Shown here piece after piece: positions 3,313 to 63,699 of a DNA stretch of 64,000 nucleotides (within the stretch, counting starts at the first letter, position 1; the number at the start of each line of letters is the position of its first letter). The position numbers and the translations under genes were made by a program. Source of the DNA: Candidatus Curtissbacteria bacterium RIFCSPLOWO2_02_41_11 (lineage in GTDB: Bacteria; Patescibacteriota; Microgenomatia; Curtissbacterales; GWA2-41-24); assembly GCA_001775055.1 (NCBI GenBank), contig MFBU01000009.1, positions 382-64,381 of the forward strand, read 5' to 3'. The notes under the pieces are model-generated. The model had not been told where the DNA came from, did not search any database, and worked only from the letters and a program-made list of their open reading frames with translations.

Positions 3313-3378
3313 TATCCATTAGTATATTGGTATCGATGCTAATATACGAATTCATACTAATTATACAAATATAAGTAT

Positions 3379-10153: not shown

Positions 10154-10201
10154 AGAGGAAGAATTTTAGCATATTTTGGAATAGATTACTATGGGTTGAT
10201 A

Positions 10202-10918: not shown

Positions 10919-11100
10919 TTAAGGTTATTTTAGCAGTTTCACCCTGATCATGTCGACTTTACGTCAGTTGTTGGTGAAAATAGGATTTGGGACACAGAGT
11001 CGAAGACCCTGAGCGAGTGAAACGAGTCGAAGGGTCGCAGAATTTTGGGGATAGCTTCCCCACTTCTTGATTTTTACTTTGAGAGCGTCGTACAATTGTA

Positions 11101-11156
11101 ACTGACAACTGACAACTGACAACTGACAACTGACAACTGACAACTGACAACTGACA
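11101..11156 (+). repeat. 8 perfect tandem copies of heptamer ACTGACA ending 3 nt before the xerC-like ATG
   Basis: Counted directly: 56 nt = 8 x 7. Spurious ORFs 10959..11150 and 10964..11239 are artefacts of this tract. Confidence 0.9.
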
Positions 11157-11159
11157 AAA

Positions 11160-20539: not shown

Positions 20540-22507
<1,968 letters not shown>

Positions 22508-22586
22508 TTAGCTGATACATTAATTAATTTTATCAGAAACGGTTTGGCAATTGCAAGCTGTTTTGAAGCTATTTTAGTGACTTTAT

Positions 22587-23255
22587 TTAAAGAGAATTTA
22601 TTTGAAAAAACAAATTTGCCAGAACGAATTTGGCGTTGACATTAGCCTCAATCATTGTCTTAGCCTTGGCGCTTTTTTCGATTATTTCGGCAAGATCCTC
22701 TGGCGTAAAGTTCGAATTTCCTCCACCTATTTTTTTTAAGAGTTTTGTGTAAGCCATTTGAATTTGGCTACTTAGCCAGATACTTGGGTTTTCAACTTGG
22801 ACAATTTTTTCAATAGCGGCTAAAGTGTCTGATTCGTCCAAAATATTAAAATCCGAACTAGCTGATAGCTTGGGTTGTTTGGCCCTTTTAATAATTACTC
22901 TTGAGAGAATTGTCGGCAAAAATTGTTGTTTATTGTCGGCTTCCAAAACAATAATGGCAGATGCCGGAGGCTCCTCGAGGATTTTTAAAAGGGCGTTTTG
23001 AGCCTCATCGGTCAGCTTGTTTGCCTCTTCAATAATTACAAACTTGAAATTAGATTTTAACGGTTTTTGAAATATATGTCTTTTAAGATTTCGAACTTGA
23101 TCAATGGTTATAAATTGGCCTTGCGGCTCAATTATAAAAATATCCGGGGAAGTTTTCAGAAGGTTGATACCAAAGCTTTTGGCAAGATCTTTGGCTTCGC
23201 TCCGCCTAGTTATTTGATCTCCGATGATTAAATAGCTTTGGAATATTGTCTTCAT
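22587..23255 (-). CDS. holB: DNA polymerase III delta-prime subunit-like clamp-loader protein
   Basis: FVIIEEANKLTDEAQNALLKILEEPP...LPTILSRV matches delta-prime sensor motifs. Confidence 0.7.
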   Translation of the reverse strand: MKTIFQSYLIIGDQITRRSEAKDLAKSFGINLLKTSPDIFIIEPQGQFITIDQVRNLKRHIFQKPLKSNFKFVIIEEANKLTDEAQNALLKILEEPPASAIIVLEADNKQQFLPTILSRVIIKRAKQPKLSASSDFNILDESDTLAAIEKIVQVENPSIWLSSQIQMAYTKLLKKIGGGNSNFTPEDLAEIIEKSAKAKTMIEANVNAKFVLANLFFQINSL

Positions 23256-23399: not shown

Positions 23400-25151
23400 A
23401 TGGCTGATTCTGCCCAAGGCGCAAACATTAAGAGAGATATTCAGACTAAAGCAAAACCTTCATTTATCGAAGATGTTTTAGAATTCCGTGGTTTACTGAC
23501 TGCCCAGCAACTTAGCTTTGTTAAGAACGAGGCTAAAAGAAGACAGGAATCTGTTGAGAAAATTTTAACGCAGATGGGTTGGGTAACTGATGAACAGTTA
23601 GCCGCAGCCAAGAGTGACGTACTTGGTGTGCCTTATGTTGATCTTTCGCAGCAGCCAATTTCTCCTGAAGTTCTAGCTTATCTACCTGAAGAGGTGGCCA
23701 GAAGATTTATAGTTATTCCGATTGCCAGGGAAGGCGAAACGTTATCAGTAGCCATGTCAGACCCCCTAGACTTGCAAGTCTTAGAGTTTATCGAGAAAAA
23801 ATCTGGTCTGGCTGTTCGGCCGTATATGGCTACTGTTGGTTCAATTCAAAGGGCGATAGCAGAACAATACAGCCGCGGTCTTTCTTTTGAAGTCGGTGAA
23901 GCTTTAAAAGAAGCGGCGCCGGGACTGACTACGCCTTTGGCAATTCAAACCGGAGTTTCCGGAATTTTGGGTGAAGCTCCGGTTGCCAGGATTGTTTCGA
24001 CACTTCTTGAGTATGGTATTAAAGTCAGAGCCTCTGATATCCACATCGAGCCACTCGAGAATGAAACTAGGATTCGTTATCGAATCGACGGAATTTTGCA
24101 TGAAAAGCTGATTTTACCAAGACGCATTCATGATGCGATAGTTTCCAGAATTAAAATTTTGGGTAATATGAAGATTGACGAAAAACGCTTACCCCAAGAC
24201 GCCCGTTTTAACTTTAAAGTCGGCCAAGAAGAGTTAGATTTGAGGCTTTCAACAATGCCTACCGCCTATGGAGAGAAAGTGGTAATGAGGCTTCTTAAGA
24301 AAACCGGTGGCGTGCCGACACTGCCGGAATTGGGGCTTCGCGGCAGCGCGCTTAAACATTTAGATGAAAATATTGCCAGACCACACGGAATTATTCTGAT
24401 TTGTGGTCCAACCGGTTCGGGAAAAACGACTAGCTTGTATTCGATTCTTTCAAAGTTAAATTCGACAAAAGTTAATATCATGACCTTGGAGGATCCGATT
24501 GAATATCAAATACCGGGGGTTAATCAGGTTCAGGTAAATACTCAGGCGGGATTAAACTTTGCTTCTGGACTGCGCTCATTTTTACGGCAAGACCCTAATA
24601 TTATTATGGTTGGAGAGGTTCGCGATTCTGAAACTACTGATTTGGCTATTCAGGCTGCTCTAACCGGTCATTTAGTTTTTTCGACTCTGCACACTAACGA
24701 TGCCGCCGGAGCTCTTCCCCGACTGTTGGATATGCAGGCAGAACCTTATTTAATTGCTTCAACGGTTACCTGTGTTGCCGGCCAGCGGGTTGTGCGTAGA
24801 GTTTGTGCGGCTTGTAAAATTGCTAAAGCTCCGTCTGAGGAAATATTTATAGAAATTAAAAAAACTTTAGGTGATCTTTATAAATTTGAAAAAAGTAACC
24901 CCCCAACTTTTTTTGTGGGTAAAGGATGCAGGGAGTGTAATAATACCGGCTATTTAGATCGAATTGGTATATTTGAGGTATTGGTTGTTTCAGAAAAAAT
25001 TGCCAGGATGATTCTTACTCGTGAACCGGTCCAAGCAATTGCCAATCAAGCGATCAGCGAAGGCATGATTACGATGAAACAAGACGGTTTTTTGAAAGTG
25101 ATTGAGGGTATAACGACTGTTGAGGAAGTCTTGAGAGTAGCGGAAGAATAA
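23400..25151 (+). CDS. pilB: type IV pilus assembly ATPase PilB (GspE family)
   Basis: Walker A GPTGSGKTTSLYS, Asp and His boxes, tetracysteine CxxC...CxxC. Confidence 0.92.
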   Translation: MADSAQGANIKRDIQTKAKPSFIEDVLEFRGLLTAQQLSFVKNEAKRRQESVEKILTQMGWVTDEQLAAAKSDVLGVPYVDLSQQPISPEVLAYLPEEVARRFIVIPIAREGETLSVAMSDPLDLQVLEFIEKKSGLAVRPYMATVGSIQRAIAEQYSRGLSFEVGEALKEAAPGLTTPLAIQTGVSGILGEAPVARIVSTLLEYGIKVRASDIHIEPLENETRIRYRIDGILHEKLILPRRIHDAIVSRIKILGNMKIDEKRLPQDARFNFKVGQEELDLRLSTMPTAYGEKVVMRLLKKTGGVPTLPELGLRGSALKHLDENIARPHGIILICGPTGSGKTTSLYSILSKLNSTKVNIMTLEDPIEYQIPGVNQVQVNTQAGLNFASGLRSFLRQDPNIIMVGEVRDSETTDLAIQAALTGHLVFSTLHTNDAAGALPRLLDMQAEPYLIASTVTCVAGQRVVRRVCAACKIAKAPSEEIFIEIKKTLGDLYKFEKSNPPTFFVGKGCRECNNTGYLDRIGIFEVLVVSEKIARMILTREPVQAIANQAISEGMITMKQDGFLKVIEGITTVEEVLRVAEE

Positions 25152-25247
25152 GGGTATCACGGGCGCCAAGGGTATCACGAGTACCACAGGCTTAAAACAA
25201 AAAGCTCTTGATACTTTTGGTACATTTGATACCTTTGGTACTCTTAA
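25152..25247. repeat. copy A of a ~95-nt dyad-symmetric intercistronic repeat family (GGGTATCACGAG...AGCTCTTGATAC...GGTAC arms)
   Basis: Shares >60% identity and the same arm order with the copies at 37605, 40886 and 50511. Confidence 0.7.
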
Positions 25248-25254
25248 CATAAAC

Positions 25255-26319
25255 ATGTCTATCCAAGAGTATTTAGAAATTGTTGTTAAAAAGGAAGCTT
25301 CAGACCTTCATTTGGTTACCGGAATGCCGCCAATGGTGCGTATTGACGGGCAACTATTACCTGTTACCGGTTCTTTCTTGACACCAGAGGATACGGAAAG
25401 CCTGGTTTTTGAGCTTCTCTCCCCTGAGCAAAAGGAGATGCTTTTGGTTAACAGGGAGCTCGACTTTTCTTTTGCTCTTGGTGAAGTGGCTCGCTTTCGC
25501 GTCAATGCCTACTTTCAGAAAGGTTATCTGGCGGCAGCTTTAAGGCTGATTCCTTCATACATTAAGACGATTGAAGAACTAAACCTGCCCAAAATTTTGC
25601 ATAATTTTGCTAGACTTCGTCAAGGATTTATTTTGATTACAGGACCGACCGGTCACGGCAAGTCAACGACTTTGGCTTCGGTAATTAATGAAATTAACCA
25701 GACACGCGCGGTACACATAGTGACGATTGAAGATCCGATTGAGTATGTTTACCCTAAAGGCAAATCCCTAATTTCCCAAAGAGAGATGCATCTGGATACT
25801 CATTCATGGGAAATATCTTTGCGATCGGCTCTTCGAGAGGATCCTGATGTGGTTTTGGTTGGCGAGATGCGCGATTATGAAACAATCGCCTCGGCAATTA
25901 CCATCGCCGAGACTGGTCATTTGGTTTTTGCCACTCTGCACACCAATTCGGCTGCCCAGTCGGTCGACCGAATAATTGACGTTTTCCCCCAAAATCAACA
26001 GGCCCAAGTCCGGTTGCAACTTGCCGAGACAATTGCAGCTATTGTTTCGATGAGGTTGGTTCCAGCAATAGGTGGTGGAAGATTGCCAGCCGTAGAAATT
26101 CTTTTGACCAGTGGTGCAGTGCAGACGGTAATTAGAGAGGCCAAGAGTCACATGATTGACAATATTATTCAAACTTCGGGTGAAGCAGGCATGATTCTAC
26201 TTGATGCCTCTTTGGCCTATTTGGTTCGTTCTGGCAGGGTATCTCTGGATGTTGCCAAAAGTTACTGCATTAGGCCGGAGGAATTGGATCGCTTAGTGGG
26301 AAACAACACTAGTTCCTAG
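25255..26319 (+). CDS. pilT: type IV pilus retraction ATPase PilT
   Basis: ITGPTGHGKSTTLAS Walker A, AIRNLIRE-like segment VIREAKSHMIDNIIQTS. Confidence 0.92.
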   Translation: MSIQEYLEIVVKKEASDLHLVTGMPPMVRIDGQLLPVTGSFLTPEDTESLVFELLSPEQKEMLLVNRELDFSFALGEVARFRVNAYFQKGYLAAALRLIPSYIKTIEELNLPKILHNFARLRQGFILITGPTGHGKSTTLASVINEINQTRAVHIVTIEDPIEYVYPKGKSLISQREMHLDTHSWEISLRSALREDPDVVLVGEMRDYETIASAITIAETGHLVFATLHTNSAAQSVDRIIDVFPQNQQAQVRLQLAETIAAIVSMRLVPAIGGGRLPAVEILLTSGAVQTVIREAKSHMIDNIIQTSGEAGMILLDASLAYLVRSGRVSLDVAKSYCIRPEELDRLVGNNTSS

Positions 26320-26343: not shown

Positions 26344-27558
26344 ATGTCACTTTACCGTTATACAGCCAAGGATTTAAGCGGCAAAAAGTTTACCGGCGAA
26401 GTCGAAGCAATTGACGAGAAAGCCTTGGTAACCACTCTTCAAGGCGAAGGGCTGGTGCCGATTGAGGTTAGAGAACGCAATGCCCAAGGTTCTATAACTA
26501 TTGAGAAAGTCTTGCCTAAGACTGGCGGAGTTTCTTCCTCTGAAATTGTGGGTTTTACCAGACAGCTTTCGACAATGATTTCAGCAGGTCTTCCTTTAAC
26601 CGATGCCTTGGTAATTTTGGAAAAACAGGCTAAAAATAAGCATTTTGCGCGGGTACTTGCAGAAGTTGTGGCTGATGTCGAAGGCGGTACGTCGCTTTCG
26701 GCGGCTTTTGCCAAACATCCCAGAGTTTTTGACATTATCTATGTGAAACTGGTTGAGGCCGGTGAAACCGGCGGAGTTTTGGATAAGATTTTAAATAAAC
26801 TGGCCGAGTCTTTAGAGAAAGAAAGGGAATTTAAGGCGAAAACCCGGGGCGCTTTTATTTATCCGGCAATTGTGGTTGTGGTTATGATTATCGTAATGAG
26901 TATTATGATGATTTTTGTAATCCCCAAACTGACCAGTCTTTACACTGAAATCGGAGCAGCCCTGCCGCTTCCAACGAGAATTTTAATTGTCATGTCTAAT
27001 TTCATGAGGTCGTTCTGGTGGCTTTTAATAATGATGGTAATAGCCGGTACTTATAGCTTTAGGACATATTCCAAAACAGTCAGGGGCGGCCAGATTGTCT
27101 CAAAATTTGTTTTATGGTTGCCCATTTGGGGAAAAATCCGCAAAACCTTAATTTTAGCTCAATTCACGCGCACGCTTGGACTTTTAATCGGTAGTGGAAT
27201 CCCAATTATTACTGCCCTAAAAGTGGTGGCCGATCTTTTGGCCGCTCCTACTTATAAGGAAGGTATTGAATTTGCAATTTCCCGGGTGGAGCGTGGTGCG
27301 CCGCTTTATCAACCGCTGGCTGCCAGTCCCGATTTTCCGCCGATTATCGGGCAAATGATCAGAGTTGGTGAGGAAACAGGTAAGATGGACGAGGTCTTGA
27401 TTAGACTTTCTGTTTACTTTGAAGCGGAAAGCGAGAATTTGATTCGAAATTTAACAACGGCACTCGAGCCGGTAATTTTAGTGATTTTGGGTGCGGGCGT
27501 TGGTGTTTTAGTGCTTTCTATTATCCTGCCGATCTACAATTTGACAGCGCAATTCTAA
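26344..27558 (+). CDS. pilC: type IV pilus platform protein PilC (GspF family)
   Basis: Two GspF repeats and three transmembrane segments. Confidence 0.9.
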   Translation: MSLYRYTAKDLSGKKFTGEVEAIDEKALVTTLQGEGLVPIEVRERNAQGSITIEKVLPKTGGVSSSEIVGFTRQLSTMISAGLPLTDALVILEKQAKNKHFARVLAEVVADVEGGTSLSAAFAKHPRVFDIIYVKLVEAGETGGVLDKILNKLAESLEKEREFKAKTRGAFIYPAIVVVVMIIVMSIMMIFVIPKLTSLYTEIGAALPLPTRILIVMSNFMRSFWWLLIMMVIAGTYSFRTYSKTVRGGQIVSKFVLWLPIWGKIRKTLILAQFTRTLGLLIGSGIPIITALKVVADLLAAPTYKEGIEFAISRVERGAPLYQPLAASPDFPPIIGQMIRVGEETGKMDEVLIRLSVYFEAESENLIRNLTTALEPVILVILGAGVGVLVLSIILPIYNLTAQF

Positions 27559-27580
27559 CTGGAAACTAGAAACTATAAAC

Positions 27581-27946
27581 TTGGAACCAGACACAGTAAA
27601 TTTTAGATTCTTAAATTTTAAGGTCTACAAAGACGCAAAAAAATTTTATCATGAGATTGTTAGGATAACTGCTAACTTTCCTAGGCAATATTGGGAGTTG
27701 GGAGACCAGATGAGAAGAAGCGCTCTTTCTGTAATTCTTAATCTAGCAGAGGGTTCAGCCAAGAAGTCAGACAGAGATTTTAACCGTTACATTAAAAATA
27801 GTTTAGGGTCAATAAATGAGTGCGCAGCGGGTATTGACGTGGCTTTTGGCGAAAAACTTGTAAATGAGGAGGTTTTTAAAAATCTAATGATTAAAGCGTC
27901 AGAAATCGCAAATCAATTAGGCGGGTTCTCAAAATCTTTGAGGTAA
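27581..27946 (+). CDS. four-helix-bundle protein (23S rRNA IVS protein / Avd-like family)
   Basis: FRFLNFKVYKDAKKFYHEIVRITANFP...RRSALSVILNLAEGSAK...SLGSINEC fits the TIGR02436/Avd pattern. TTG start. Confidence 0.75.
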   Translation: MEPDTVNFRFLNFKVYKDAKKFYHEIVRITANFPRQYWELGDQMRRSALSVILNLAEGSAKKSDRDFNRYIKNSLGSINECAAGIDVAFGEKLVNEEVFKNLMIKASEIANQLGGFSKSLR

Positions 27947-28124
27947 CTCGAAACATTAAACCTTAAACTTGAAACCATAAACTGAACAGAGACTAAGTGG
28001 TGGTAGCTTGTGAAGTATTTCATGTTTCCAGTTTATTGTTTCCTGTTTCACGTTAGGTATCTTGACAACAGTTAACTTATCCCCAATACTTAAATAGAAG
28101 AGGAAATTTGAAAAGTTTATCCTC

Positions 28125-29924: not shown

Positions 29925-30539
29925 ATGAGGAAGGGTTTTGGTCTGATCGAATTTATGATCGTGATTACGGTTTTTGGAATCGCGACTGCCGTTATCACCG
30001 CCTCATTTTTAACATTTGAGCGCAATCAACGCCTAAAAAGCGCCGCCAGTATGTTAAAAAATGACATCAGGCTAATTCAAAACAAGGCACTCGGTGGGGA
30101 TAAAAGTACACCTAACTGTTCCAAAGTAACCGATCCTGCTCCGGTTTTGGTTGGTTGGTACCTGAACGTGGTTAAAGGTTCGAGTGAGTATACGTTAAAT
30201 AGCGATTGTAGAAATAAAGATAGTATTGAAGACCCTGATATTCTAATTAAAATTGTTTCATTGCCACGGGGGGTTAAAATTAGCGATGTACAATACGGGA
30301 ACAGTTCTCCTGTTTCAAAGGATGCCATCAACGTTTTATTCCAACCTTTAACACATAACACATCATTCCATGATGCTTTGCTGGCAATTACTCCCCCTTT
30401 TCTTGATAATTCGGGAAATCTAAAAGATCTATTGGGTTCATTACCTCAGGAAATGCTTAGTATTATTTTAGCCGGAGACCAAGGTGGAACTTATAAAGTT
30501 ATTGTCCAGCCTTCAGGAGAAGTTAATGAGCAAAAATAA
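29925..30539 (+). CDS. pseudopilin/minor pilin with prepilin-type N-terminus
   Basis: MRKG|FGLIEFMIVITVFGIA. Confidence 0.75.
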   Translation: MRKGFGLIEFMIVITVFGIATAVITASFLTFERNQRLKSAASMLKNDIRLIQNKALGGDKSTPNCSKVTDPAPVLVGWYLNVVKGSSEYTLNSDCRNKDSIEDPDILIKIVSLPRGVKISDVQYGNSSPVSKDAINVLFQPLTHNTSFHDALLAITPPFLDNSGNLKDLLGSLPQEMLSIILAGDQGGTYKVIVQPSGEVNEQK

Positions 30540-31017
30540 GCCAGATACCAGATACCAGATACCAGATACCAAATTTCTCGGTCAATCTCTCATCGAGGTT
30601 GTCATCGCCATGGCTGTTATTGTCGGTTTGGCTGTGGCTTTGGTGACTACGACTTTGGTTGTCCAGAAAGCATCAAGGACGGCCAAAAATAATACTCAGG
30701 CTACGAAGTTAGTCCAGCAAAATATCGAGCAGGTAAGAGTTTATAGGGACCGCAAAGGCTATGCTTCTATCCCCGATGGAGGTAGCTGTTATACACTATC
30801 CTCAGGTGATCCAGATCCCCTTAGCTGGTTCTTTTCTGCTTCTTTTGACTGTTCTGGAAGTGGGCAGCAAATTACTTTGGGTAAGACCAATTTCGACAGA
30901 AAAATAAAGATTGAAACTGATGCTAGTACAAAAAAGGTTACTGTTACCGTTTCTTGGACAGATTCTGGCGGAACCCAGTCGGTTAGTAATCAAACCATTC
31001 TATCTTCAGGCCTCTAG
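30526..31017 (+). CDS. minor pilin-like protein; leader region contains 4x heptamer CAGATAC
   Basis: ...KFLG|QSLIEVVIAMAVIVGL prepilin-like. ATG 30526 preferred over the track start 30484. Heptamer tract at 30541-30568. Confidence 0.65.
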   Translation: MSKNKPDTRYQIPDTKFLGQSLIEVVIAMAVIVGLAVALVTTTLVVQKASRTAKNNTQATKLVQQNIEQVRVYRDRKGYASIPDGGSCYTLSSGDPDPLSWFFSASFDCSGSGQQITLGKTNFDRKIKIETDASTKKVTVTVSWTDSGGTQSVSNQTILSSGL

Positions 31018-31061: not shown

Positions 31062-31739
31062 ATGCCCTTCCATAAAGTATCTAGTATCTGGTATCTAGTA
31101 TCTGGTATTAAATATACTAAATACAAAATACTAAATACAAAATACTGTAAAACCAAAGGCTTTACCCTCATTGAGCTTTTGGTTGTTTTGGGGATTTTGG
31201 CGGCGGCTGTTGGGGCTTCCATGATTTTTCTTACCTCTGTTTTAAAAGGGACTAATCAGGCTAATGTGACGGCCGAAGTTAAGCAAAACGGCCAAGTAGT
31301 TTTAGATTCACTGGAAAAACAGATTCGTGGTGCTACTGATGTGGAGTGTGCCAATAGTGCGGGGAACTCCGTTGATTGTTCCGATGCATCTGCTTCTCTT
31401 AAATACTTAAAGCTTGTGAGATCGGATGAAGACCCGTTACATATCGGGTGTTTTTTGGATAGTCTACCCAAAACAGAAAATGGCTGGATAGGCATTGTTG
31501 AGTCAGCTCTAGCTTATCCTTCATCAACAAACTATGTATCGGTTACAAATAAAGATGCTATTTCAGGAGTTGATATTCAGGATTGTAATTTTAAGGTATC
31601 CTCTGCATCTTCTGGAACAACTTCGCCATCGGTAGTTTCCATTAGCTTTATAGTCAATCAAGGAATTGACGCACCTTCACGCGCGGATTTTTTGGCTAAT
31701 GCTAAATTCGAGACGACGATATCGCTGAGAAACTATTAA
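31062..31739 (+). CDS. pilin-like protein with unusually long, repeat-encoded leader
   Basis: ...CKTKG|FTLIELLVVLGILAAA. The 33-aa leader is encoded by heptamer/14-mer tandem repeats at 31080-31145. True start uncertain. Confidence 0.65.
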   Translation: MPFHKVSSIWYLVSGIKYTKYKILNTKYCKTKGFTLIELLVVLGILAAAVGASMIFLTSVLKGTNQANVTAEVKQNGQVVLDSLEKQIRGATDVECANSAGNSVDCSDASASLKYLKLVRSDEDPLHIGCFLDSLPKTENGWIGIVESALAYPSSTNYVSVTNKDAISGVDIQDCNFKVSSASSGTTSPSVVSISFIVNQGIDAPSRADFLANAKFETTISLRNY

Positions 31740-31832: not shown

Positions 31833-32618
31833 ATGAAAAAGAAGAAGGGACAGGTTTTGGTACTTGTTTTATTGGTTGTCGTAGTAGCCTTGGCTGTTGG
31901 CCTTTCGGTGGCTAGCAGAAACCTGACCAATCTTAGAACGACTACTCAAACCGAACAGTCTCAGAGAGCCTTTAATGCAGCCGAAGGCGGGATAGAGAGT
32001 ATTCTTCCAAATTTAGCTACAGTTGCGGAAGGGCCTCAACCAGCAATTCAAGTGGGTAATCTTGAAGCCAATGTCACTGTTAATAAAGAGACTGAATACT
32101 TCTGGACGATTCCAGAAGGAGAAGTTGGTCAGGTTAAATTGGATGACGCAACCGGTAGCCCGACTGAGATTCAAATTGAGTGGGTCAAAACCGGTGATCC
32201 TCAAGAAGATCCGACACCGCCGCTCAGCGGTACTCCTGCCTCGGTTGAGATTACGAGAATCGATGAGACTGCAGGTAATTTTACCCAACAGAGATTTGCC
32301 TTGACAGGTGGATCGGCAGGGGTAAACGAGCAGGGTTTTGATTCTCCAAGTAATTGTTCTGCCGACTTTGTGAAATGTACAAAAATTGGTTTTCCAAGTA
32401 ATTCGCGAATTTTAAGAATCAGACCCTTTTGGAATCAGGCGACGGTTAAGGTAACATCTGTTGGCGGTAGCCTTCCCGATCAGCAATATACTATTACTTC
32501 ATCGGCAACGTCCGAACTTGGATTGACTAGAAAAATTGAAGTTACCAAAACAGTTTTGCCGCAGCTGCCGGCGGTTTTTGACTATGTTTTGTATTCTGAA
32601 CGAGATATTGTTAAGTAA
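31833..32618 (+). CDS. hypothetical membrane-anchored protein in pilus locus
   Basis: N-terminal transmembrane segment VLVLVLLVVVVALAVGL, rest T/S/G-rich. Confidence 0.55.
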   Translation: MKKKKGQVLVLVLLVVVVALAVGLSVASRNLTNLRTTTQTEQSQRAFNAAEGGIESILPNLATVAEGPQPAIQVGNLEANVTVNKETEYFWTIPEGEVGQVKLDDATGSPTEIQIEWVKTGDPQEDPTPPLSGTPASVEITRIDETAGNFTQQRFALTGGSAGVNEQGFDSPSNCSADFVKCTKIGFPSNSRILRIRPFWNQATVKVTSVGGSLPDQQYTITSSATSELGLTRKIEVTKTVLPQLPAVFDYVLYSERDIVK

Positions 32619-32647
32619 CAACTGACAACTGACATTTGACAAAAAAT

Positions 32648-37604: not shown

Positions 37605-37700
37605 GGTTTAAGGGTATCACGAGTTGTCAGAGTACCACGAGTATCAGGAGCTCTCTTGACTTTTCAGCTCGTGGTACTTTTGATACTCTTGGTACCCATA
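37605..37700. repeat. copy B of the dyad-symmetric intercistronic repeat; overlaps the last 11 codons of nusB
   Basis: GGGTATCACGAGTTGTCAGAGTACCACGAG...AGCTCGTGGTACTTTTGATACTCTTGGTACCC. Confidence 0.7.
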
Positions 37701-38065
37701 ATACTCTTTGATTTGACTATTGAGCCTAAAACGCCATTAACAAAGCTACCGGATGCTTCAGAACCATATTGTTTGGCGATTTCGACTGCTTCATCAATGA
37801 CAACTTTATACGGTTCTTTGTTTTTTTTGAACAAGAGTTCAAAGATAGCAAGCCTAAGCGTTGCCAGGTCAATTGGGGCGATTTGGTTAAGTGGCCAGGT
37901 AGGTGCGTGTTGGGTAATTAGCTTGTCGATTGCTTTTTGTTTGGTAATAATCTTTGCGACCATTGAGGTTTTGGCAATTTTCAAATTTGATCTAAAGTTT
38001 TTTTCAAACAAAGCTTTAACTGTTTGAACTCTCATTTTATGTCTTGGATCACTTTTTCTTTTCAT
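37664..38065 (-). CDS. nusB: transcription antitermination factor NusB
   Basis: RHKMRVQTVKALF...VIDEAVEIAKQYGSEASGSFVNGVL. Confidence 0.88.
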   Translation of the reverse strand: MKRKSDPRHKMRVQTVKALFEKNFRSNLKIAKTSMVAKIITKQKAIDKLITQHAPTWPLNQIAPIDLATLRLAIFELLFKKNKEPYKVVIDEAVEIAKQYGSEASGSFVNGVLGSIVKSKSIMGTKSIKSTTS

Positions 38066-38845: not shown

Positions 38846-40885
38846 TCAATTTGGTTGGGCGAGTTCGGATTGGAAACGGGAGAGTTTATTAGCGAGTAAG
38901 GGGTATTTGGTAAGCTGCCAATCTTCTTCGATAAGTTTTTTGGCCTCACTTTGGGCCTGGCTGATCATTTTTTGATCGGAAAGATCGGCGATTTTGAGAT
39001 TGACAAAGCCGGATTGTTTAAGGCCGAAAACTTCGCCAGGGCCGCGCATTTTAAGATCGATTTCAGCAAGTTCAAAACCAACGTGGATTTTTTCCATGCT
39101 TTTTAAGCGCCTGAGAGAGTTTTCGGCGCGTGAATCGGTAAAGAGAAGACAATATGACTGATATTTACCCCTACCGACTCTTCCGCGCAACTGATGGAGT
39201 TGGGCCAGCCCAAAGCGTTCTGCTGATTCAATCATCATAACAACCGCATTGGGTACATCAATACCGACTTCAACAACGGGTGTGGCAACTAGAATGTCGA
39301 TCTTACCCTCTCTGAACTCTTTGATGATTTTCTCTTTCTCTTTTGATTTGAGACGACCATGCAAAAGTCCTAGTTTAATTTTTGAAGAGAACTTAGTCTT
39401 TAACTTTTCAAATTCATCGGTGGCAGCTTTCACAGAAAGCATTGTTTCTGAAGGTTCAACAAAAGGGGTAATGATAAAAGCCTGTCGTTTGTTTGCAATT
39501 TGCTTTTCGATAAATTTATAGGCGTCGGCTCTTTTGTAATTTGGGACAACATATGTTGCGATTTTTTGACGGCCGGCGGGCATTTCATCAAGAACAGAAA
39601 GATCAAGATCTCCATACAAGGTTAAGGCGAGTGTTCTGGGAATAGGTGTGGCTGTCATTGTTAGAAGATGAGGGGTTAGATCTTTTGCTTGACCAAGAAA
39701 AAGTTTGGCCCTTTGGGCAACTCCAAAGCGATGTTGTTCGTCGACAACGACTAAGCCGATTTGTCTTTCATCTTTATAGCTTAAGAGAAGGGCATGAGTA
39801 CCACAGGTGATGTGACCTTTGATTTTTTTACTGCCTGTCCAGATACCGACTTTCATGCCTAAAGGCGAAAGAATATCCTCAAGGGTTTTTTGGTGCTGGA
39901 ATGCCAGTATTTCCGTAGGTGCGGCCAAAAGCGTATCAAAACCGTTTAAATAAGCGACATAAGCGGCAATGGCGGCAACCACTGTTTTTCCAGAGCCGAC
40001 GTCTCCTTCCAAAAGGCGATTAGTTGGAATTTCCCTTTGCATATCGGAAAGAATTTCTTTGGTTGCTTTTAACTGGGCTGAAGTTAGCTTAAAGGGAAGT
40101 TTTTTTACAAAATTATTGATTTTTGGTATATCAATTTTCATTTTGTGAGCAATTTTAGTCTCTTGCCGATCTTTTTTTCGCATCAGTGCCAAAAACTGAA
40201 GTAAAAAAAGCTCGTCAAAAGAAAGCCTGTGTCTTGCCCTTTCAACCTCTTGATAATTTTTAGGAAAGTGGATTTTATAAAGTGCTTCTTTTAAATCCAA
40301 AAATTTTTGGTGAGGTACGATCTTGTTGGGTATAAAATCCTTGACTGATTTTAGGTAAGAGGGAAAAATTTGAGCGATCTTGGCACGGATCCATTTTGAG
40401 GAGACTCCTTCGGTTTCCGGATAAATTGGAACCAATCGACCGGTGTGCAAGGTTGAATTTTCCATTTTCAAATTTGAATGTCTGATTATTTCATATGCAG
40501 GTGAGATGAGTTGAAGATGGTTGCCCTTAATCTCAACTTTTCCAGAGAGCGATATTTGCATGCCGGATTTGATGTTTTTGGTTAAAAAAGGTTGATTGAA
40601 CCAGATAATATCAATAGCCCCTGATTGATCGGCAACAGTAGCAGTAGTTACGAATTTGCCTCTTGGAGTTCTGATATTTTTTATTTGCCAGACGACTCCA
40701 TGGACACTTAGTTTTTCGCCAGGTGCTACATTTTGGATTTTTTCAATCTTTGAAAAATCGTCGTAACGAAACGGTAAATGATAGATTAAATCCTCAACTG
40801 TTTTAATCTCAAGCCTTCTTAATTTTTGGGAAAAGTACCTACCGATGCCTGGTAATTTTTCAATTGGAGTTTGTGGATTCATCAT
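38846..40885 (-). CDS. recG: ATP-dependent DNA helicase RecG
   Basis: Wedge domain N-terminus; helicase motif I GDVGSGKTVVA, DEQHRFGV, and motif VI. Confidence 0.93.
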   Translation of the reverse strand: MMNPQTPIEKLPGIGRYFSQKLRRLEIKTVEDLIYHLPFRYDDFSKIEKIQNVAPGEKLSVHGVVWQIKNIRTPRGKFVTTATVADQSGAIDIIWFNQPFLTKNIKSGMQISLSGKVEIKGNHLQLISPAYEIIRHSNLKMENSTLHTGRLVPIYPETEGVSSKWIRAKIAQIFPSYLKSVKDFIPNKIVPHQKFLDLKEALYKIHFPKNYQEVERARHRLSFDELFLLQFLALMRKKDRQETKIAHKMKIDIPKINNFVKKLPFKLTSAQLKATKEILSDMQREIPTNRLLEGDVGSGKTVVAAIAAYVAYLNGFDTLLAAPTEILAFQHQKTLEDILSPLGMKVGIWTGSKKIKGHITCGTHALLLSYKDERQIGLVVVDEQHRFGVAQRAKLFLGQAKDLTPHLLTMTATPIPRTLALTLYGDLDLSVLDEMPAGRQKIATYVVPNYKRADAYKFIEKQIANKRQAFIITPFVEPSETMLSVKAATDEFEKLKTKFSSKIKLGLLHGRLKSKEKEKIIKEFREGKIDILVATPVVEVGIDVPNAVVMMIESAERFGLAQLHQLRGRVGRGKYQSYCLLFTDSRAENSLRRLKSMEKIHVGFELAEIDLKMRGPGEVFGLKQSGFVNLKIADLSDQKMISQAQSEAKKLIEEDWQLTKYPLLANKLSRFQSELAQPN

Positions 40886-40985
40886 GATAAGAGTATCACG
40901 AGTTTCAAGTGAATCAAGAGCATCAAAAGCTTTTTGATTAATTATAGCCAGTGGTACCCGTGGTGTTTTTGGAGTTCGTATTGCT
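40886..40985. repeat. copy C of the dyad-symmetric intercistronic repeat
   Basis: AGAGTATCACGAG...AGCTTTTTGAT...GGTACCCGTGGTG. Coordinates are ±10 because of the display inconsistency. Confidence 0.6.
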
Positions 40986-40990
40986 TTTAT

Positions 40991-42374: not shown

Positions 42375-43463
42375 TTATTTTCTTTTTTGGACTTTGACTA
42401 CTTGAAAACCTTGTTCTCTCAGGTTGATGATTGTTTGATCGATTGCTGCTTGAGGAGTACCGCGGTCTTGGCCAAACATAAACTTGACGCCCCCATCTGG
42501 TGTATGTGAATCGGCTGCTGTTAAATTAATCCCATTTTGGGCAAAAACTCCCGTAATTTGATGGAGGACACCAGGCTGGTCTATTGGTCCAAGTACCCGA
42601 ATCGATTGAATTCTCAAGTTAGCCATTCTTTCAAGGATTATGGTGGTACTTTCGGTCATTTCACTGGCCATGTTGTCTTTGTTTAGTGCATCGAATGTTT
42701 GCTTTAACATTGCTGCAAGTTTTTCCTCGTCTGGCGCTTGGGTTATTTCTTGGAGACTTGATATTAGGAGATGGACTATTTTTCTTCCATCCTCATCTTC
42801 TAGGTAGTTTTGGATAATATTTGCTGATATGTTTGGGTCTTGGATTAGAGTTCTCCAAGTGCTCAAGAAAAATAGTTCGGCATTGGCTGGTGCTAAATCC
42901 CAGAGCTCGCGCGGGCTGTCTCCTAATTTTTCAAGTACTCTACCAACTGTTCTCATTACCAAATGAGGGAGCAGTTGTTCCCTGATCATTCTTCGGTCAT
43001 GTTCTTCAAGGGAATGGTCAATGATTATCATGCCGGAGGTATCATAAAAATCTTCAGCAAAAAGTCTAGCTGGTTTTGAATTTTTCCCAACATCCATTAC
43101 TACTACCTTTTGACCTCTGGGAGGCAGATCATGGCGCGCTAAAGGGTGGATTGAGCAAACGCTTACCCCACGTGCATCAAGTCCCTGTAAGACTGGAATT
43201 ATTCTTCTTTTAATGGTGGTATTGTCCAGTACTCTTTGGTCTTCCCTAATCTTTTGCCCATGTTTTTCGAGGACTTCAAGTAAATCTTTTGGGAATAACG
43301 AAAAATAGATGACAGTTGCCCATGCAATGGCTTCTTCTGGATCTATTTGAATTTCGGCACGTGGGTCAACAACTTTTGTTTCGTGACCTTGCTTTTGAGC
43401 TTCGTTATTAGTGCGGTTGCCCATATTGCCGGCACCGCCAAAAATTACAATTCGTTCAGTCAT
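42375..43463 (-). CDS. prephenate/arogenate dehydrogenase-like NAD(P)-binding protein with C-terminal ACT domain
   Basis: IVIFGGAGNMG Rossmann motif; C-terminal ACT-like RVLGPIDQPGVLHQITGVFAQNGINL. Confidence 0.55.
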   Translation of the reverse strand: MTERIVIFGGAGNMGNRTNNEAQKQGHETKVVDPRAEIQIDPEEAIAWATVIYFSLFPKDLLEVLEKHGQKIREDQRVLDNTTIKRRIIPVLQGLDARGVSVCSIHPLARHDLPPRGQKVVVMDVGKNSKPARLFAEDFYDTSGMIIIDHSLEEHDRRMIREQLLPHLVMRTVGRVLEKLGDSPRELWDLAPANAELFFLSTWRTLIQDPNISANIIQNYLEDEDGRKIVHLLISSLQEITQAPDEEKLAAMLKQTFDALNKDNMASEMTESTTIILERMANLRIQSIRVLGPIDQPGVLHQITGVFAQNGINLTAADSHTPDGGVKFMFGQDRGTPQAAIDQTIINLREQGFQVVKVQKRK

Positions 43464-43510
43464 AGCTAAATTGTGCCTTATAGTTTATCACGGGTGTCAA
43501 GAAATGCAAA

Positions 43511-43569
43511 ATCCGAAGGTGTCAAGCTACTTCACCCTTGGGGTGAATTAGGTTTACACCTGCGGATTA
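43511..43569. repeat. REP-like imperfect palindrome, left flank of the RAYT
   Basis: ATCCGAAGGTGTCAAGCTACTTCACCCTTGGGGTGAATTAGGTTTACACCTGCGGAT. Terminal arms are inverted, with a central CACCCTTGGGGTG palindrome. Confidence 0.75.
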
Positions 43570-44214
43570 TTTAGGTAAATCAAGTGTTTGATGCTTGATT
43601 CTTTCGAGCTCCTTTCCGTAATTTTCTTGATCAAGGACGAATTGTTTATACTTTTGTGATGATTTAAATTGTTTGACGATTATGTCTTTTGAGCAAACTG
43701 AGGTTTTGTTTATACCAATGTACTCCAAATAAGAGGACAGTGGGTATAATTCTAAATTGTCTGTTAAATAACTGACAAGCGGATTAAGATGAATGTATCT
43801 TGACAGGTGAACAAGTTGTTCATTAGTTTCAACGAGGACCGATTTAAACTCCCCTTGCAGTATGGGTCCTGCCCTTTCATTTTTGGTGTTAAAGTATTTG
43901 GTGTAGCTATTGCTAATCTTGCTGGTAAATTCCGTGATACCGCCATTAACTTTTTGCTGAAGTAGAAAATGGAAATGATTAGGCATTAGACAGTAGCAGA
44001 CTAATTCAACAATTTTATTGTGTGTATCCAACTTATTATTATCAGGGTTAAAAATAGAGAATTTTGGCTTGGGTCCTTTAAGCTGATAATAAAGAAATGT
44101 TTTGATGAATCTTTTGTAGTCCCATTTGTCATTGAATATTGGCATATGAGCCACGCCTCTATTGAAGATATGGTAAAAATGGTTATTGACGAAAGGAATA
44201 ATCCTTGATGGCAT
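43567..44214 (-). CDS. IS200/IS605-family Y1 transposase (REP-associated tyrosine transposase, RAYT-like)
   Basis: HUH motif in CLMPNHFHFLL; catalytic-Tyr region SRYIHLNPL. Size 215 aa. Flanked by REP-like palindromes. Confidence 0.75.
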   Translation of the reverse strand: MPSRIIPFVNNHFYHIFNRGVAHMPIFNDKWDYKRFIKTFLYYQLKGPKPKFSIFNPDNNKLDTHNKIVELVCYCLMPNHFHFLLQQKVNGGITEFTSKISNSYTKYFNTKNERAGPILQGEFKSVLVETNEQLVHLSRYIHLNPLVSYLTDNLELYPLSSYLEYIGINKTSVCSKDIIVKQFKSSQKYKQFVLDQENYGKELERIKHQTLDLPK

Positions 44215-44247
44215 TGTTTTTAGGATTTGAGGCTAATAAATCATATA

Positions 44248-44310
44248 AATCCGCAGGTGTCAAGTTGAATCACCCTTGGGGTGGATTCCGTTGGCACCTT
44301 GGGCAGATTC
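44248..44310. repeat. REP-like imperfect palindrome, right flank of the RAYT
   Basis: ATCCGCAGGTGTCAAGTTGAATCACCCTTGGGGTGGATTCCGTTGGCACCTTGGGCAGATTC, ~80% identical to the left copy. Confidence 0.75.
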
Positions 44311-50061: not shown

Positions 50062-50164
50062 GGGGAAATTTTAACACAAAAATACCTCTCGAACTTAAAA
50101 AATGCTTTAAGAACGAGAGGCGAAATGATTTATATCAATTGAAAATTTTTTTGTCAACTCCGCA

Positions 50165-50506
50165 CTAGCTAACTTTTTTGACAATTTCATCAAAAGCTTG
50201 CGGGTCTTCGATGGCAATTTGAGAAAGAATTTTACGGTCCAGTTCTATTTTTTTGGATTTAAGCTTGTTAATGAATTGACTGTAAGAAAGATTGTGGGGT
50301 GTAAGCGCACCGTTGATTCTGGTAATCCAAAGAGACCTATTTGTGCGTTTTTTTTCTTTTCGACCGCGGTAGGCATCGACTCCGGCATGAATGACTGCTT
50401 CTTTGGCGAGTTTTATAAGTTTTGATCTGCCACCACGATAACCTTTGGCATGAGCTAAAAGCTTTTTATGTCTTTTGTGAGTGGTTACTCCTCGTTTGAC
50501 GCGCAT
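50165..50506 (-). CDS. rplT: 50S ribosomal protein L20
   Basis: MRVKRGVTTHKRHKKLLAHAKGYRG. Confidence 0.93.
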   Translation of the reverse strand: MRVKRGVTTHKRHKKLLAHAKGYRGGRSKLIKLAKEAVIHAGVDAYRGRKEKKRTNRSLWITRINGALTPHNLSYSQFINKLKSKKIELDRKILSQIAIEDPQAFDEIVKKVS

Positions 50507-50510
50507 AATG

Positions 50511-50608
50511 GTAAGAGTACCATGGGAATCAAGGGTATCAAGAGTATCATGAGCTTTTTGATTTATAGCTCTTGGTACCCGTGGTACTCTTGGAACCCGT
50601 GATACTTT
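50511..50608. repeat. copy D of the dyad-symmetric intercistronic repeat, filling the rpmI–rplT spacer
   Basis: AGAGTACCATGGG...GGGTATCAAGAGTATCATGAGC...AGCTCTTGGTACCCGTGGTACTCTTGG; long imperfect hairpin. Confidence 0.75.
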
Positions 50609-50610
50609 TT

Positions 50611-50805
50611 CTAATCATAGGGCATTAGTCTTTCAATTCTTTTCTTTTCCGGTTTTGAAATGTAGGCAATTCGTTTGTATCGCACCTTGGCGCTTTTGGT
50701 TTTTGCGGCTTTGAGATGACCGGCCATTTGGCGTCTTCTTAAAATTTTGCCGCTTTTTGTAATTTTAAAGCGTTTGGCTGCTGCTTTCTTGGTTTTTTGT
50801 TTCAT
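50611..50805 (-). CDS. rpmI: 50S ribosomal protein L35
   Basis: MKQKTKKAAAKRFKITKSGKI. Confidence 0.92.
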   Translation of the reverse strand: MKQKTKKAAAKRFKITKSGKILRRRQMAGHLKAAKTKSAKVRYKRIAYISKPEKKRIERLMPYD

Positions 50806-50846
50806 ATTCGAACTTTAAACTGTAAACTTTAAACTTGAAACTAATT

Positions 50847-51419
50847 TTATGTTGCAGGTTTATTGTTTCCGGTTTCTGGTTGTTTTGAGTGAGTTCTTAC
50901 TGGTTTGATTATAGTGACAAACCTTCTTCCTTCGAATTTTGCTTCTCTTTCCGTTACGGCTATATCTGAAAGCTCTCTTAGAATTCTTTCCAAAAGTTTT
51001 GGCCCGAATTCAGTATGAGCCATCTGTCTTCCCATAAAGACTATTGATATTTTAACCAGATCGCCTACAGAAAGAAATTTTTTAACTCTTTCCAGCGCGG
51101 TTTGTAAATCATGCTCGCCTATAAACGGCGAAAAACGAACTTCTTTAAGTTCTGCCTGCTTGGTGTGTTTTCTGGCTTCTTTTTCCTTTTTTTCTTCTAA
51201 ATATCTGAATTTTTTAAAATCGACTATTTTGACGACCGGTGGCTTGGCGTTTGATGCTATTTCAACTAAATCCAAATTTATTTCTTGAGCTTTTTTTAAA
51301 GCTTCAGGAAGCGATAAAATTCCAATTTGTTTATGTTCTTGGTCGATGACCCGAACTTGATTTGCCCTAATTTGGTGATTTATTCTAAATTGTTTCTTGA
51401 CGGCCAGCCTCCTAATAAT
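50847..51419 (-). CDS. infC: translation initiation factor IF-3, probably with a non-AUG (AUU/AUC) start
   Basis: The track ORF starts at an internal TTG (MDLVEIASNAKPPVVKIVDFKKF). The frame stays open upstream and encodes the IF3 N-domain (...RINHQIRANQVRVIDQEHKQIGILSLPEALKKAQEINLDLVE) with no in-frame ATG. Candidate ATT at 51419/51416, ATC at 51431. 5' end uncertain. Confidence 0.7.
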   Translation of the reverse strand: MIRRLAVKKQFRINHQIRANQVRVIDQEHKQIGILSLPEALKKAQEINLDLVEIASNAKPPVVKIVDFKKFRYLEEKKEKEARKHTKQAELKEVRFSPFIGEHDLQTALERVKKFLSVGDLVKISIVFMGRQMAHTEFGPKLLERILRELSDIAVTEREAKFEGRRFVTIIKPVRTHSKQPETGNNKPAT

Positions 51420-53763: not shown

Positions 53764-53837
53764 GGGCTCATAGCTCAGTTGGTTAGAGCGTCACGTTGAC
53801 ATCGTGGAGGTCAGAGGTTCAAATCCTCTTGAGCCCA
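53764..53837 (+). tRNA. tRNA-Val (anticodon GAC)
   Basis: Cloverleaf folded by hand: acceptor GGGCTCA/TGAGCCC, D-arm GCTC-AGTTGGTTA-GAGC, anticodon arm TCACG-TTGACAT-CGTGG, T-arm AGAGG-TTCAAAT-CCTCT, discriminator A. CCA not encoded. Confidence 0.9.
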
Positions 53838-53872
53838 CATTGTGAAACTTTGGAGCATTTCTATTTTGGGAT

Positions 53873-60449: not shown

Positions 60450-60470
60450 AAGTTTGATTTTGATAAAAAG

Positions 60471-60552
60471 TGCCGAGGACAGGAGTCGAACCTGCACACC
60501 TTGCGGTACACGGTCCTAAACCGTGCGCGTCTGCCAGTTCCGCCACCTCGGC
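60471..60552 (-). tRNA. tRNA-Leu (anticodon TAG)
   Basis: Hand-folded class II tRNA: acceptor GCCGAGG/CCTCGGC, anticodon arm CACGG-TTTAGGA-CCGTG, long variable arm, T-loop TTCGACT. Confidence 0.88.
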
Positions 60553-60580
60553 GTAAGAAGAATTCTACCAAATTTTGGAC

Positions 60581-63514: not shown

Positions 63515-63598
63515 GCCGAAGTGGCGGAACCGGTAGACGCGCAGCGTTCAGAGCGCTGTGAGCATTAGCTCGTGGAGGTTCAAATCCTCTCTTCGGCA
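63515..63598 (+). tRNA. tRNA-Leu (anticodon CAG)
   Basis: Hand-folded: acceptor GCCGAAG/CTTCGGC, anticodon arm CAGCG-TTCAGAG-CGCTG, long variable arm, T-arm GGAGG-TTCAAAT-CCTCT. Confidence 0.88.
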
Positions 63599-63602
63599 CA
63601 GC

Positions 63603-63685
63603 GCGGACGTGGCGGAATTTGGTATACGCGTACGCTTGAGGTGCGTATCCCGCAAGGGTTGGAGGTTCGAGTCCTCTCGTCCGCA
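63603..63685 (+). tRNA. tRNA-Leu (anticodon GAG)
   Basis: Hand-folded: acceptor GCGGACG/CGTCCGC, anticodon arm TACGC-TTGAGGT-GCGTA, long variable arm, T-loop TTCGAGT. Confidence 0.88.
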
Positions 63686-63699
63686 CAACTGTTGACTTC

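Follow-up and report, generated by a model that had tools for sequence, protein, structure and literature searches.

The 64,000-nt stretch of contig MFBU01000009.1 from Candidatus Curtissbacteria bacterium RIFCSPLOWO2_02_41_11 that was analyzed here (hereafter, the window) contains, at positions 43567..44214 on the minus strand, a 215-amino acid (aa) open reading frame (ORF). Its product is a putative single-strand DNA transposase-nuclease of the HUH/tyrosine (Y1) type and of the RAYT/TIRYT class (RAYT, repetitive extragenic palindrome (REP)-associated tyrosine transposase). The gene lies between two palindromes, and the arrangement is very probably a REPtron/TIRtron-like cassette of Candidatus Curtissbacteria, in which one class-2 Y1 HUH gene is enclosed by two cognate elements. 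This reading is supported by the family, residues and predicted fold of the protein, the conservation of the flanking elements around its homologs, the occurrence of orphan elements in related genomes, and differences in presence and absence between collinear genomes.

A preliminary description of this DNA had recognized a Y1 transposase in the 215-aa product on the basis of an HUH motif (NHFHFLL) and a downstream tyrosine region typical of TnpA and RAYT proteins, and both assignments are borne out. In a hidden Markov model (HMM) search, the protein passes the Pfam Y1_Tnp profile (PF01797) with 24.0 bits against the 23-bit cut-off, and the same profile matches all 62 aligned relatives (35-94% identity), with the best E-value of 2.8e-11. 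Across this alignment, H15, H80, H82 and G116 are invariant, and Y14, N18, R19, Y107, N109, R139, Y140, H142, L143, N144, P145, S160, S161 and Y165 are conserved in at least 90% of the sequences. The HUH motif corresponds to H80-F-H82, the candidate catalytic tyrosine is Y140 within R-Y-I-H-L-N-P, and S160-S161 form the 'SS' motif of the tail. The signature Y140-I-H-L-N144-P145, that is, Y-x-x-x-N-P, is near-invariant in the family, and Y-x-x-x-Q is not present.

A search of the PDB with the single window sequence gave no relevant match, and the family profile was required to reveal similarity to E. coli TnpA_REP (4ER8, E-value 6.8e-7) and to ISDra2 TnpA (1.6e-3). H80/H82 align with H59-M-H61 of 4ER8 and Y140 with the tyrosine of VDYIYINP (Y115 by our count). 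For the AlphaFold2 (AF2) model of the window protein (predicted local distance difference test score, pLDDT, 94; predicted TM-score, pTM, 0.89), the best fold match found by Foldseek in the PDB is 4er8_A (E-value 1.2e-6, TM-score 0.67 on the target), followed by Thg1 and by the transposases of IS608, ISDra2 and IS200. Judged by the profile and the predicted fold, TnpA_REP (4ER8) is the closest solved relative of the window protein, and its placement nearer to the REP-associated TnpA_REP than to TnpA of the IS200/IS605 type is supported. Compared with Table 1 of PMC6006769, the motifs NHFH, LQ (FQ in the family consensus), YIHLNP and SS fit TnpAY1 subclass 2.1, equivalent to RAYT Group 1 (Bertels) and probably to the TIRYTs of Di Nocera 2013. 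Besides Y1_Tnp, a Pfam search of the window protein at E-value ≤1 detected nothing, including the C-terminal helix-turn-helix (HTH) families Bac_DnaA_C, HTH_23 and HTH_28, and no HTH family was found among the 62 relatives (Pfam, E-value ≤0.01); the C-terminal tail is helical in the AF2 model, and a divergent HTH is possible.

The protein family is very large: one homolog search yielded 7,931 matches among 8,000 scored candidates, and another retrieved 17,123 cluster representatives at E-value ≤1e-3, 344 of them at E-value ≤1e-30. The nearest named homolog, 94% identical, also comes from Candidatus Curtissbacteria, and many relatives of about 215 aa with 60-70% identity are found in Levybacteria and other Patescibacteria. 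As for the RAYT character of the gene, its copy number is low, with a single copy in the 64-kb window and a single copy in a 96-kb contig of a relative, and the paralogs at the homologous locus L016 are divergent (49% identical). The ORF list includes no ORF of tnpB size adjoining the Y1 gene.

The palindromes that flank the gene were delineated by sequence comparison, self-alignment, folding and a unit HMM, and no strand is assigned to either. The downstream (3') one (43509..43570) is double-armed, with a distal arm AAATCCGAAGGTGTCAAG (43509-43526), a core hairpin CACCC-TTG-GGGTG (43533-43545) and a proximal arm ACACCTGCGGATTA (43556-43569) which includes the TAA stop codon of the gene (43567-43569). 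The upstream (5') palindrome (44245..44303) comprises a gene-proximal arm AAATCCGCAGGTGTCAAG (44247-44264), the same core hairpin (44271-44283) and a degenerate distal arm GCACCTTGGGCAGAT (44293-44303). They had been described as two imperfect palindromes of about 80% identity, which is accurate with respect to identity (81% between 43509-43561 and 44247-44299) and self-complementarity, but the two are direct repeats, each palindromic in itself, and not simply an inverted pair. Treated as single-stranded DNA, the downstream copy (43510-43568) forms a near-perfect hairpin with a dG of -21.1 kcal/mol (z -7.3; 0 of 200 shuffled sequences as good), and the upstream copy reaches -12.8 kcal/mol (z -2.9), the weaker fold being due to the degeneracy of the distal arm.

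Comparison with the loci of homologs (L011, 94% identity; L014, 71%; L016, 62% and with a second paralog; L018, 61%; L019, 67%) and with about 24 loci from the genome scan described below revealed a unit that directly flanks the ORF at every homologous locus examined, including those of both L016 paralogs. In the basic unit, about 40 nt long, the A-rich head is followed by the arm (A)ATCCG[C/T]AGGTGT(CAA) (in the flanks of homologs, TCCGCAGGTGT), a spacer of 10-11 nt, and the hairpin CACCC-NNN-GGGTG with 1-2 additional variable base pairs. In Curtissbacteria, this unit has acquired a second, inverted arm and so became a palindrome of about 55-56 nt. The feature that defines a REPtron, a gene flanked by cognate hairpin repeats, is seen upstream of 28 of the 30 homologous genes, where the order is hairpin, arm, start codon. 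Downstream, the hairpin follows the stop codon in nearly all loci, the arm being direct in 10, inverted in 7 and absent in 10. With respect to terminal inverted repeats (TIRs), the arrangement is thus inverted in seven loci, direct in ten, and both in the window, where the flanks are direct and self-palindromic. In the window and in loci L011, L016 and L076, the head of the downstream unit encompasses the stop codon (TAA-TCCGCAGGTGT).

Base changes in the hairpin are compensatory, the innermost pair being C-G in 119 units and T-A in six, and the next pair outward C-G, A-T or T-A. Moreover, unit variants track the protein. The two L016 paralogs (2724-3395 and 10001-10645), less than 7 kb apart, are each accompanied by one variant, CCGCAGGTGT...ACACCCCAAGGGTGT and CCCTAGGTG...CCACCCCTTAGGTGG, respectively, and of the two orphan units within the next 8 kb (14817-14856 and 18446-18486), one carries the second variant and the other is intermediate. 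The conservation of the flanks spans homologs with 35-94% identity from different candidate classes. The view that the palindromes are conserved cognate elements of the Y1 protein is supported at the sequence level, and the palindrome of about 55 bases is the most likely recognition target of the enzyme.

Further copies of the unit, without the gene, are dispersed in related genomes. We scanned species-representative genomes with the pattern TCCGNAGGTGT-N10-11-CACCCNNNGGGTG, which fixes 20 bases and, by our own arithmetic, should have about two chance matches in 596 Gb, and found at least 119 matching stretches, almost all in metagenome-assembled genomes (MAGs) of Microgenomates; the labels among the matches listed are Davies-, Levy-, Gottesman-, Curtiss- and Shapirobacteria. 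The matches listed, to which the following figures also refer, hold 147 units, 106 of which are not within 200 nt of a homolog of the window protein; an ORF recognized by the family HMM is present in only 30 of the 119 tiles, and by this test, too, most units are not beside a Y1 gene. At least 11 elements accompany one Y1 ORF in the tiles fetched from one genome, and at least three elements occur in 22 of 66 genomes, both values being lower bounds. Most of the orphans (85 of 107) lie outside a crude set of ORFs. When the unit is written from arm to hairpin, both neighboring genes run in the same direction in 40 cases and in the opposite direction in four, a bias that fits a strand-specific mechanism or selection on the transcribed strand. 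At the positions that the pattern leaves free, units are 69% identical within a genome, and those of different genomes 52% (as good in 0 of 500 permutations of the labels), as expected for propagation or homogenization within genomes. The orphan flanks yielded no target-site consensus beyond the A-rich head.

Additional evidence comes from a collinear genome. A second pattern scan, of metagenomes, returned a 99.8-kb contig whose units match MFBZ01000029.1 (Curtissbacteria RIFCSPLOWO2_12_FULL_41_16), and the two were taken as the same sequence. Collinearity of MFBZ01000029.1 with the window extends from about 14.7 to 63.3 kb, and yet its Y1 gene, 78% identical to that of the window, lies with its flanking units between the orthologs of the window genes 22587-23255 and 20540-22477. 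The corresponding spacer of the window (22478-22586, 109 nt) contains neither a Y1 gene nor a palindrome, and beyond the insertion the sequence is conserved again. Conversely, the site of the window gene, between the genes for PBP1A and tyrosyl-tRNA synthetase (TyrRS), holds in the relative a single double-armed palindrome followed by the TyrRS leader, as after the L011 cassette. Two more solo palindromes of the relative have no counterpart at the corresponding sites of the window, one lying right after the T-run of a conserved terminator-like hairpin between the genes for L20 and PheS (window 50062-50164) and the other between a gene end and a tRNA-Leu gene (window ~60553-60580), so that this collinear contig has about three solo copies per ~100 kb. 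In L014, the Y1 gene flanks that for PBP1A on the opposite side.

These comparisons show that the cassette of gene and palindromes has changed position, as have palindromes on their own, and 'domesticated', the term used in the preliminary description, is accordingly too strong. Because the 78% identity of the Y1 gene falls within the range of the neighboring housekeeping genes (46-85%), we read the difference as intragenomic relocation in a vertically inherited system and not as horizontal acquisition. The solo unit at the alternative site is the expected residue of recombination between two direct units, and insertion of the gene into an existing solo unit would have the same appearance, so that either direction of the event fits the present data.

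By analogy with TnpA_REP and with the TnpA proteins of IS608 and ISDra2, the Y1 protein would bind the hairpin and the arm in single-stranded DNA, as exposed, for instance, on the template of the lagging strand or on the non-template strand; Y140 would cleave, with the metal held by H80 and H82, and the strands would be rejoined. Over evolutionary time, solo elements would have been scattered into intergenic DNA, and the gene together with one element would have moved between sites, leaving one element behind. A bolder version of this scheme, which we put forward only tentatively, is that in Microgenomates the RAYT-type gene is still mobile, with the enzyme recombining the two direct units on single-stranded DNA, excising a circle that contains the gene and one unit and leaving a solo element at the donor site, and with solo elements elsewhere serving as landing pads.

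The upstream palindrome probably also contributes to expression of the gene, as far as can be judged from the promoter-like geometry read from the sequence at 44235..44263 (minus strand). On the gene strand, the sequence of the arm is TTGACACCTGCGGA, and its part TTGACA (44263-44258), a candidate -35 box within the upstream proximal arm, is followed after a 17-nt spacer by the -10-like hexamer TTTATT (44240-44235), which ends 20 nt before the ATG. Among 26 homologous loci, 24 have TT[GT]ACA and a -10-like hexamer at a distance of 16-18 nt (17 nt in 22 of them), and 15 pass a stricter test of the -10 box (four or more of six positions matched, A2 and T6 among them). In most cases, 7-8 nt separate the end of the hexamer from the start codon, compared to 20 nt in the window and in L011. 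A generic promoter scan did not call the window site, because its -10 hexamer lacks A at position 2. If the upstream arm indeed supplies the -35 box of the Y1 promoter, as is probable, then binding of the protein at this arm could autoregulate Y1 expression.

Several observations weigh against the cassette interpretation or limit its reach. The NCBIfam equivalog REP_Tyr_transpos (NF047646) scores 44.4 bits, below its 80-bit cut-off. The hairpin has no canonical GT[AG]G at its foot, the conserved G[C/T]AG being located about 13 nt from the foot as part of the arm, the AGGTGT of which ends 10-11 nt before the CACCC stem. The REP/RAYT assignment of the preliminary description is correct in essence, with regard to the cognate flanks, the RAYT-class protein and the orphans in relatives, although the element is not a canonical REP; the corrections concern the lack of window copies beyond the flanking two, the fragment near 6685 and the other repeat families. 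Neither the two-copy HMM nor an HMM built from 153 units detected further palindromes in the 64-kb window. Conservation of the arm, head and core among the scan matches is partly a matter of ascertainment, given that the pattern fixed them, and arm conservation upstream of the gene is explicable by promoter function alone. The orphan counts are lower bounds from incomplete MAGs, some of which are perhaps chimeric, and the differences in presence and absence could be deletions instead of insertions. In the organism of the window itself, the cassette is fixed among the assemblies covered and current activity is not indicated: the gene order PBP1A, cassette, prephenate dehydrogenase with an ACT domain (PDH-ACT), TyrRS is the same at all 10 places listed for the Y1 protein and at the 10 listed for PDH-ACT (among them GCA_000996905.1 and GCA_036841665.1, the latter included in the full comparison), seven compared assemblies are identical over 971 nt (0 differences), and the look-ups with the Y1 and PDH proteins found no empty-site or rearranged variant of the locus among the places listed. 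The catalytic residues are intact in the window protein.

The alternative that survives best, although we regard it as unlikely, is that the locus is an autonomous insertion sequence (IS) of the IS200/IS605 type, the two direct elements being its left and right ends (LE/RE) and the orphans derivatives resembling palindrome-associated or miniature inverted-repeat transposable elements (PATEs/MITEs). This would account for the direct orientation and spacing of the flanks (~705-740 nt apart in the window and in 10 relatives, an IS200-like size), for the different sites of the cassette in collinear genomes, and for the additional fold matches to IS608 and ISDra2 TnpA. The protein, with Y-x-x-x-N-P (class 2) in place of Y-x-x-x-Q and with 215 aa including a conserved tail as opposed to about 150 aa, is not of the kind such an element would encode. 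The single copy in both the 64-kb window and the 96-kb contig of a relative, and the ratio of one Y1 ORF to as many as 11 units in the fetched tiles, are likewise at odds with an autonomous IS, as is the vertical descent suggested by the sequence identity of the gene. In many relatives, the downstream unit has the inverted orientation or no arm at all. Excision of IS200/IS605 elements is seamless, whereas here a solo unit remains at the alternative site.

Still less probable, in our view, is that the palindromes are regulatory or structural elements of the host that flank a domesticated Y1 gene with another role and are not mobilized by its product. Such a role could be suggested by the downstream hairpin, which is followed by TTTTGCATTT to give a terminator-like site, although the site is called on the plus strand, opposite to that of the gene; by the spacing of TTGACA from the -10-like hexamer in 24 of the 26 loci; by the location of most orphans downstream of co-directional genes, similar to transcribed REPs (PMC3733652); and by the fixation of the locus in the population. 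A general function of the unit as an intrinsic terminator is nonetheless ruled out, with a T-run after only 14 of 144 units, and the TTGACA of most orphans points toward the 3' end of the upstream gene, which excludes it as a promoter of that gene. Furthermore, the unit is tied to a Y1 gene at every homologous locus and its variants track paralogs, while the homogeneity within genomes and the differences between collinear genomes point to propagation. That the repeats are a functionless product of chance or local duplication, an idea to which only the presence of just two full copies in the window lends itself, is refuted by their conservation across genomes, around homologs 35-94% identical and with at least 119 pattern matches against about two expected, and is further contradicted by the folding z-scores (-7.3 and -2.9).

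We also examined shorter matches to the palindromes and other repeats in the window. With up to three mismatches, ATCCGNAGGTGTCAAG has six matches compared to 0.92 expected, the two exact ones being the flanking copies, and TCACCCTTGGGGTG occurs at the two flanking sites only; GGTGTCAAG occurs five times compared to 0.28 expected, namely in both elements, in an arm fragment (43493-43501), inside the ORF 25255-26319, and at 6679. The latter site corresponds to a REP-like fragment reported earlier near 6685; a 12-nt match (GGTGTCAAGTTG, 6679-6690) does exist there, but it is not distinguishable from chance (blastn E-value 0.16; nhmmer E-value 0.95 with the two-copy HMM) and is missed by the 153-unit HMM, and we rejected it along with the chance-level match at 25377 inside the ORF 25255-26319. 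No Rfam family matches the region. As the orphans in related genomes show, the palindrome is not unique to this locus; the window itself has no copies besides the flanks. The metagenome pattern scan yielded no other contig of this organism, only the Curtissbacteria relative (in two samples) and two other contigs.

An isolated third arm fragment, ACGGGTGTCAAG (CTTGACACCCGT on the gene strand), at 43490-43501, lies just outside the downstream palindrome at a distance of 8 nt and may be the remnant of a former copy. Similar partial copies of the head or arm are found beside full elements elsewhere, namely AATCCGAATTGATCCGAATC (L139:1111-1137) and GCGGATTCGGATG (L011:10700-10720), and, together with the window fragment, these may be footprints of repeated insertion or excision.

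The repeat families of the window, which had been attributed to the REP/RAYT system, are not explained by it. They are 7-nt and 9-nt periodic, intergenic or mostly so, and unrelated in sequence to the Y1 palindromes. One is a family of 44-63-nt elements with ~9-nt periods (similar to GGTATCACGAGT / GGTACCACGAG), mostly intergenic and usually abutting gene ends (14696-14739, 25141-25203, 37609-37711, 40880-40988 and 50504-50612). The other consists of intergenic tandem arrays of heptamers (AACTGAC, AAACTNN, GTTTCNN, CCAGATA and TTTCAAT/TTTCCAA), some of which recur at distant sites (11100-11160 and 32613-32645; 27557-27587, 27945-27989 and 50811-50841; 28017-28054 and 50844-50881; 6634-6670); one array occurs as an inverted pair, 30541-30574 / 31077-31108, enclosing about 500 nt that overlap the ORF 30484-31017.

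Among the neighboring genes, the PDH-ACT gene (42375-43463, minus strand) lies between the cassette and the TyrRS gene in the window organism. Neither L011, with a Y1 protein of 94% identity, nor the collinear relative L117 has the gene at this place; L014 instead has a PDH-PDT-ACT fusion gene (PDT, prephenate dehydratase) within a shikimate operon. Between the genes for L20 and PheS (window 50062-50164, minus strand) lies a leader that is conserved in comparison with L139:1030-1285; it contains TTGACA...TTGATATAA as well as a hairpin resembling a terminator, GCCTCTCG...CGAGAGG, with a T-run behind it, common to the Curtissbacteria relative. This could be an attenuator-like leader of pheST. 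The window also encodes tRNA-Leu(tag) (60470-60552), tRNA-Leu(cag) (63515-63599), tRNA-Leu(gag) (63603-63686) and tRNA-Val(gac) (53764-53838), and in the relative a solo palindrome is located just upstream of the Leu(tag) ortholog. With respect to the scanned MAGs, about half of those with pattern matches are titled 'uncultured Gammaproteobacteria' (binchicken and SRP co-assemblies; L020-L138). A Y1 gene of the window's family is present in the fetched tiles of 19 of these, and every MAG so titled has the Microgenomates-type unit, which suggests that the submitters' Gammaproteobacteria labels are wrong.

Genomes of the candidate phyla radiation (CPR)/Patescibacteria are about 1 Mb in size, tightly packed and generally seen as poor in mobile DNA. 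Should the tentative proposal of a still mobile RAYT-type gene be correct, a vertically inherited, clade-wide gene-plus-repeat system would have persisted in streamlined genomes of ~1 Mb, with an arm that doubles as a portable -35 box. The Y1 gene and its element of about 40 nt are recognizable in MAGs labeled Daviesbacteria, Levybacteria, Gottesmanbacteria, Curtissbacteria and Shapirobacteria, an unusually deep conservation, since REPs are normally species-specific. Subclass 2.1/Group 1 is the largest and least understood group of RAYTs, and as it was reported to lack REP-like structures, the pairing with a hairpin found here offers biochemical work a defined substrate. The collinear Curtissbacteria genomes, with the cassette in one and a solo element in the other at the same site, provide a natural before/after pair that bears on the mobility of RAYT genes themselves and on the way in which REP-like elements first become established. 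In practical terms, the element can serve as an annotation feature and as a strain marker for Microgenomates MAGs.

Among the known systems, the E. coli REPtron, that is, TnpA_REP (RayT/YafM; 4ER8; PMC3479197; subclass 2.2) with its bacterial interspersed mosaic elements (BIMEs), shares with the window cassette the HUH motif and the tyrosine at the same positions, the signature Y-x-x-x-N-P, a single-copy gene flanked by hairpin elements and, in relatives of the window organism, the intergenic dispersal of these elements. The two proteins are only 12% identical over the fold alignment and differ in length (215 aa compared to 165 aa) and in the conserved tail; the guide-binding motif W94/Q95 is replaced by F/L-Q, and instead of a GTAG foot there is an 11-nt arm at 10-11 nt from a very short hairpin. 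The copies number tens at most, not hundreds, and the host is a CPR bacterium.

In protein motifs, the window protein matches the TIRYTs of the TIRtrons (PMC3733652), which are probably equivalent to subclass 2.1 (PMC6006769), the RAYT Group 1 of PMC5581495, and with which it shares NH[YF]H, FQ, Y[IV]HLNP and SS as well as a length above 200 aa. TIRYT genes, too, are present in low copy number, with flanking repeats that belong to families of moderate abundance and may extend into the ends of the ORF, and with some IS-like behavior, and the hairpin sequences GGGGTGAA and GGGGTGGA resemble the TIR motif GGGGWSAS (7/8 and 6/8 matches, respectively). Subclass 2.1 was reported without REP-like secondary structures and with a C-terminal HTH (PMC6006769); by contrast, the window family has no C-terminal HTH detectable with Pfam, its conserved core is a hairpin, and the flanks in the window are direct and self-palindromic, not plain TIRs.

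Elements of the IS200/IS605 group (IS608, ISDra2) resemble the cassette in the fold of the transposase, in the occurrence, among many family members, of a hairpin at each end on the same strand, and in a presumed single-strand, strand-biased mechanism, to which the orientation bias of the orphans corresponds. Unlike these elements, the cassette lacks Y-x-x-x-Q and an adjacent ORF of tnpB size, is single-copy, does not recur as a set of near-identical insertion sequences, and has a solo element as its counterpart at the alternative site; the IS200/IS605 TnpA is dimeric with about 150 aa, in contrast to the RAYT-like 215 aa of the window protein. REPINs and double-foot REPs (PMC3116915; subclass 2.4 in PMC6006769) recall the Curtissbacteria form, a symmetric element that, with the conserved arm at one end and the reverse complement at the other, is comparable to a double-foot REP or to a REPIN contracted to a single shared hairpin; a further parallel is the dispersal of solo copies, here seen in a relative. 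They differ in that the present element has one central hairpin and not two, that solo copies number about three per ~100 kb in the relative and none in the window, and that the protein belongs to another subclass. A full-text literature search found no paper that combines RAYTs or REPINs with Patescibacteria, CPR or Microgenomates, and Quentin et al. (PMC6006769) mention none of these three groups; as far as this search shows, the surveys of TIRYTs, subclass 2.1 and RAYT Group 1 do not extend to Microgenomates. The cassette thus appears to be a variant of the REPtron/TIRtron kind in the CPR, with a novelty that is real but modest.

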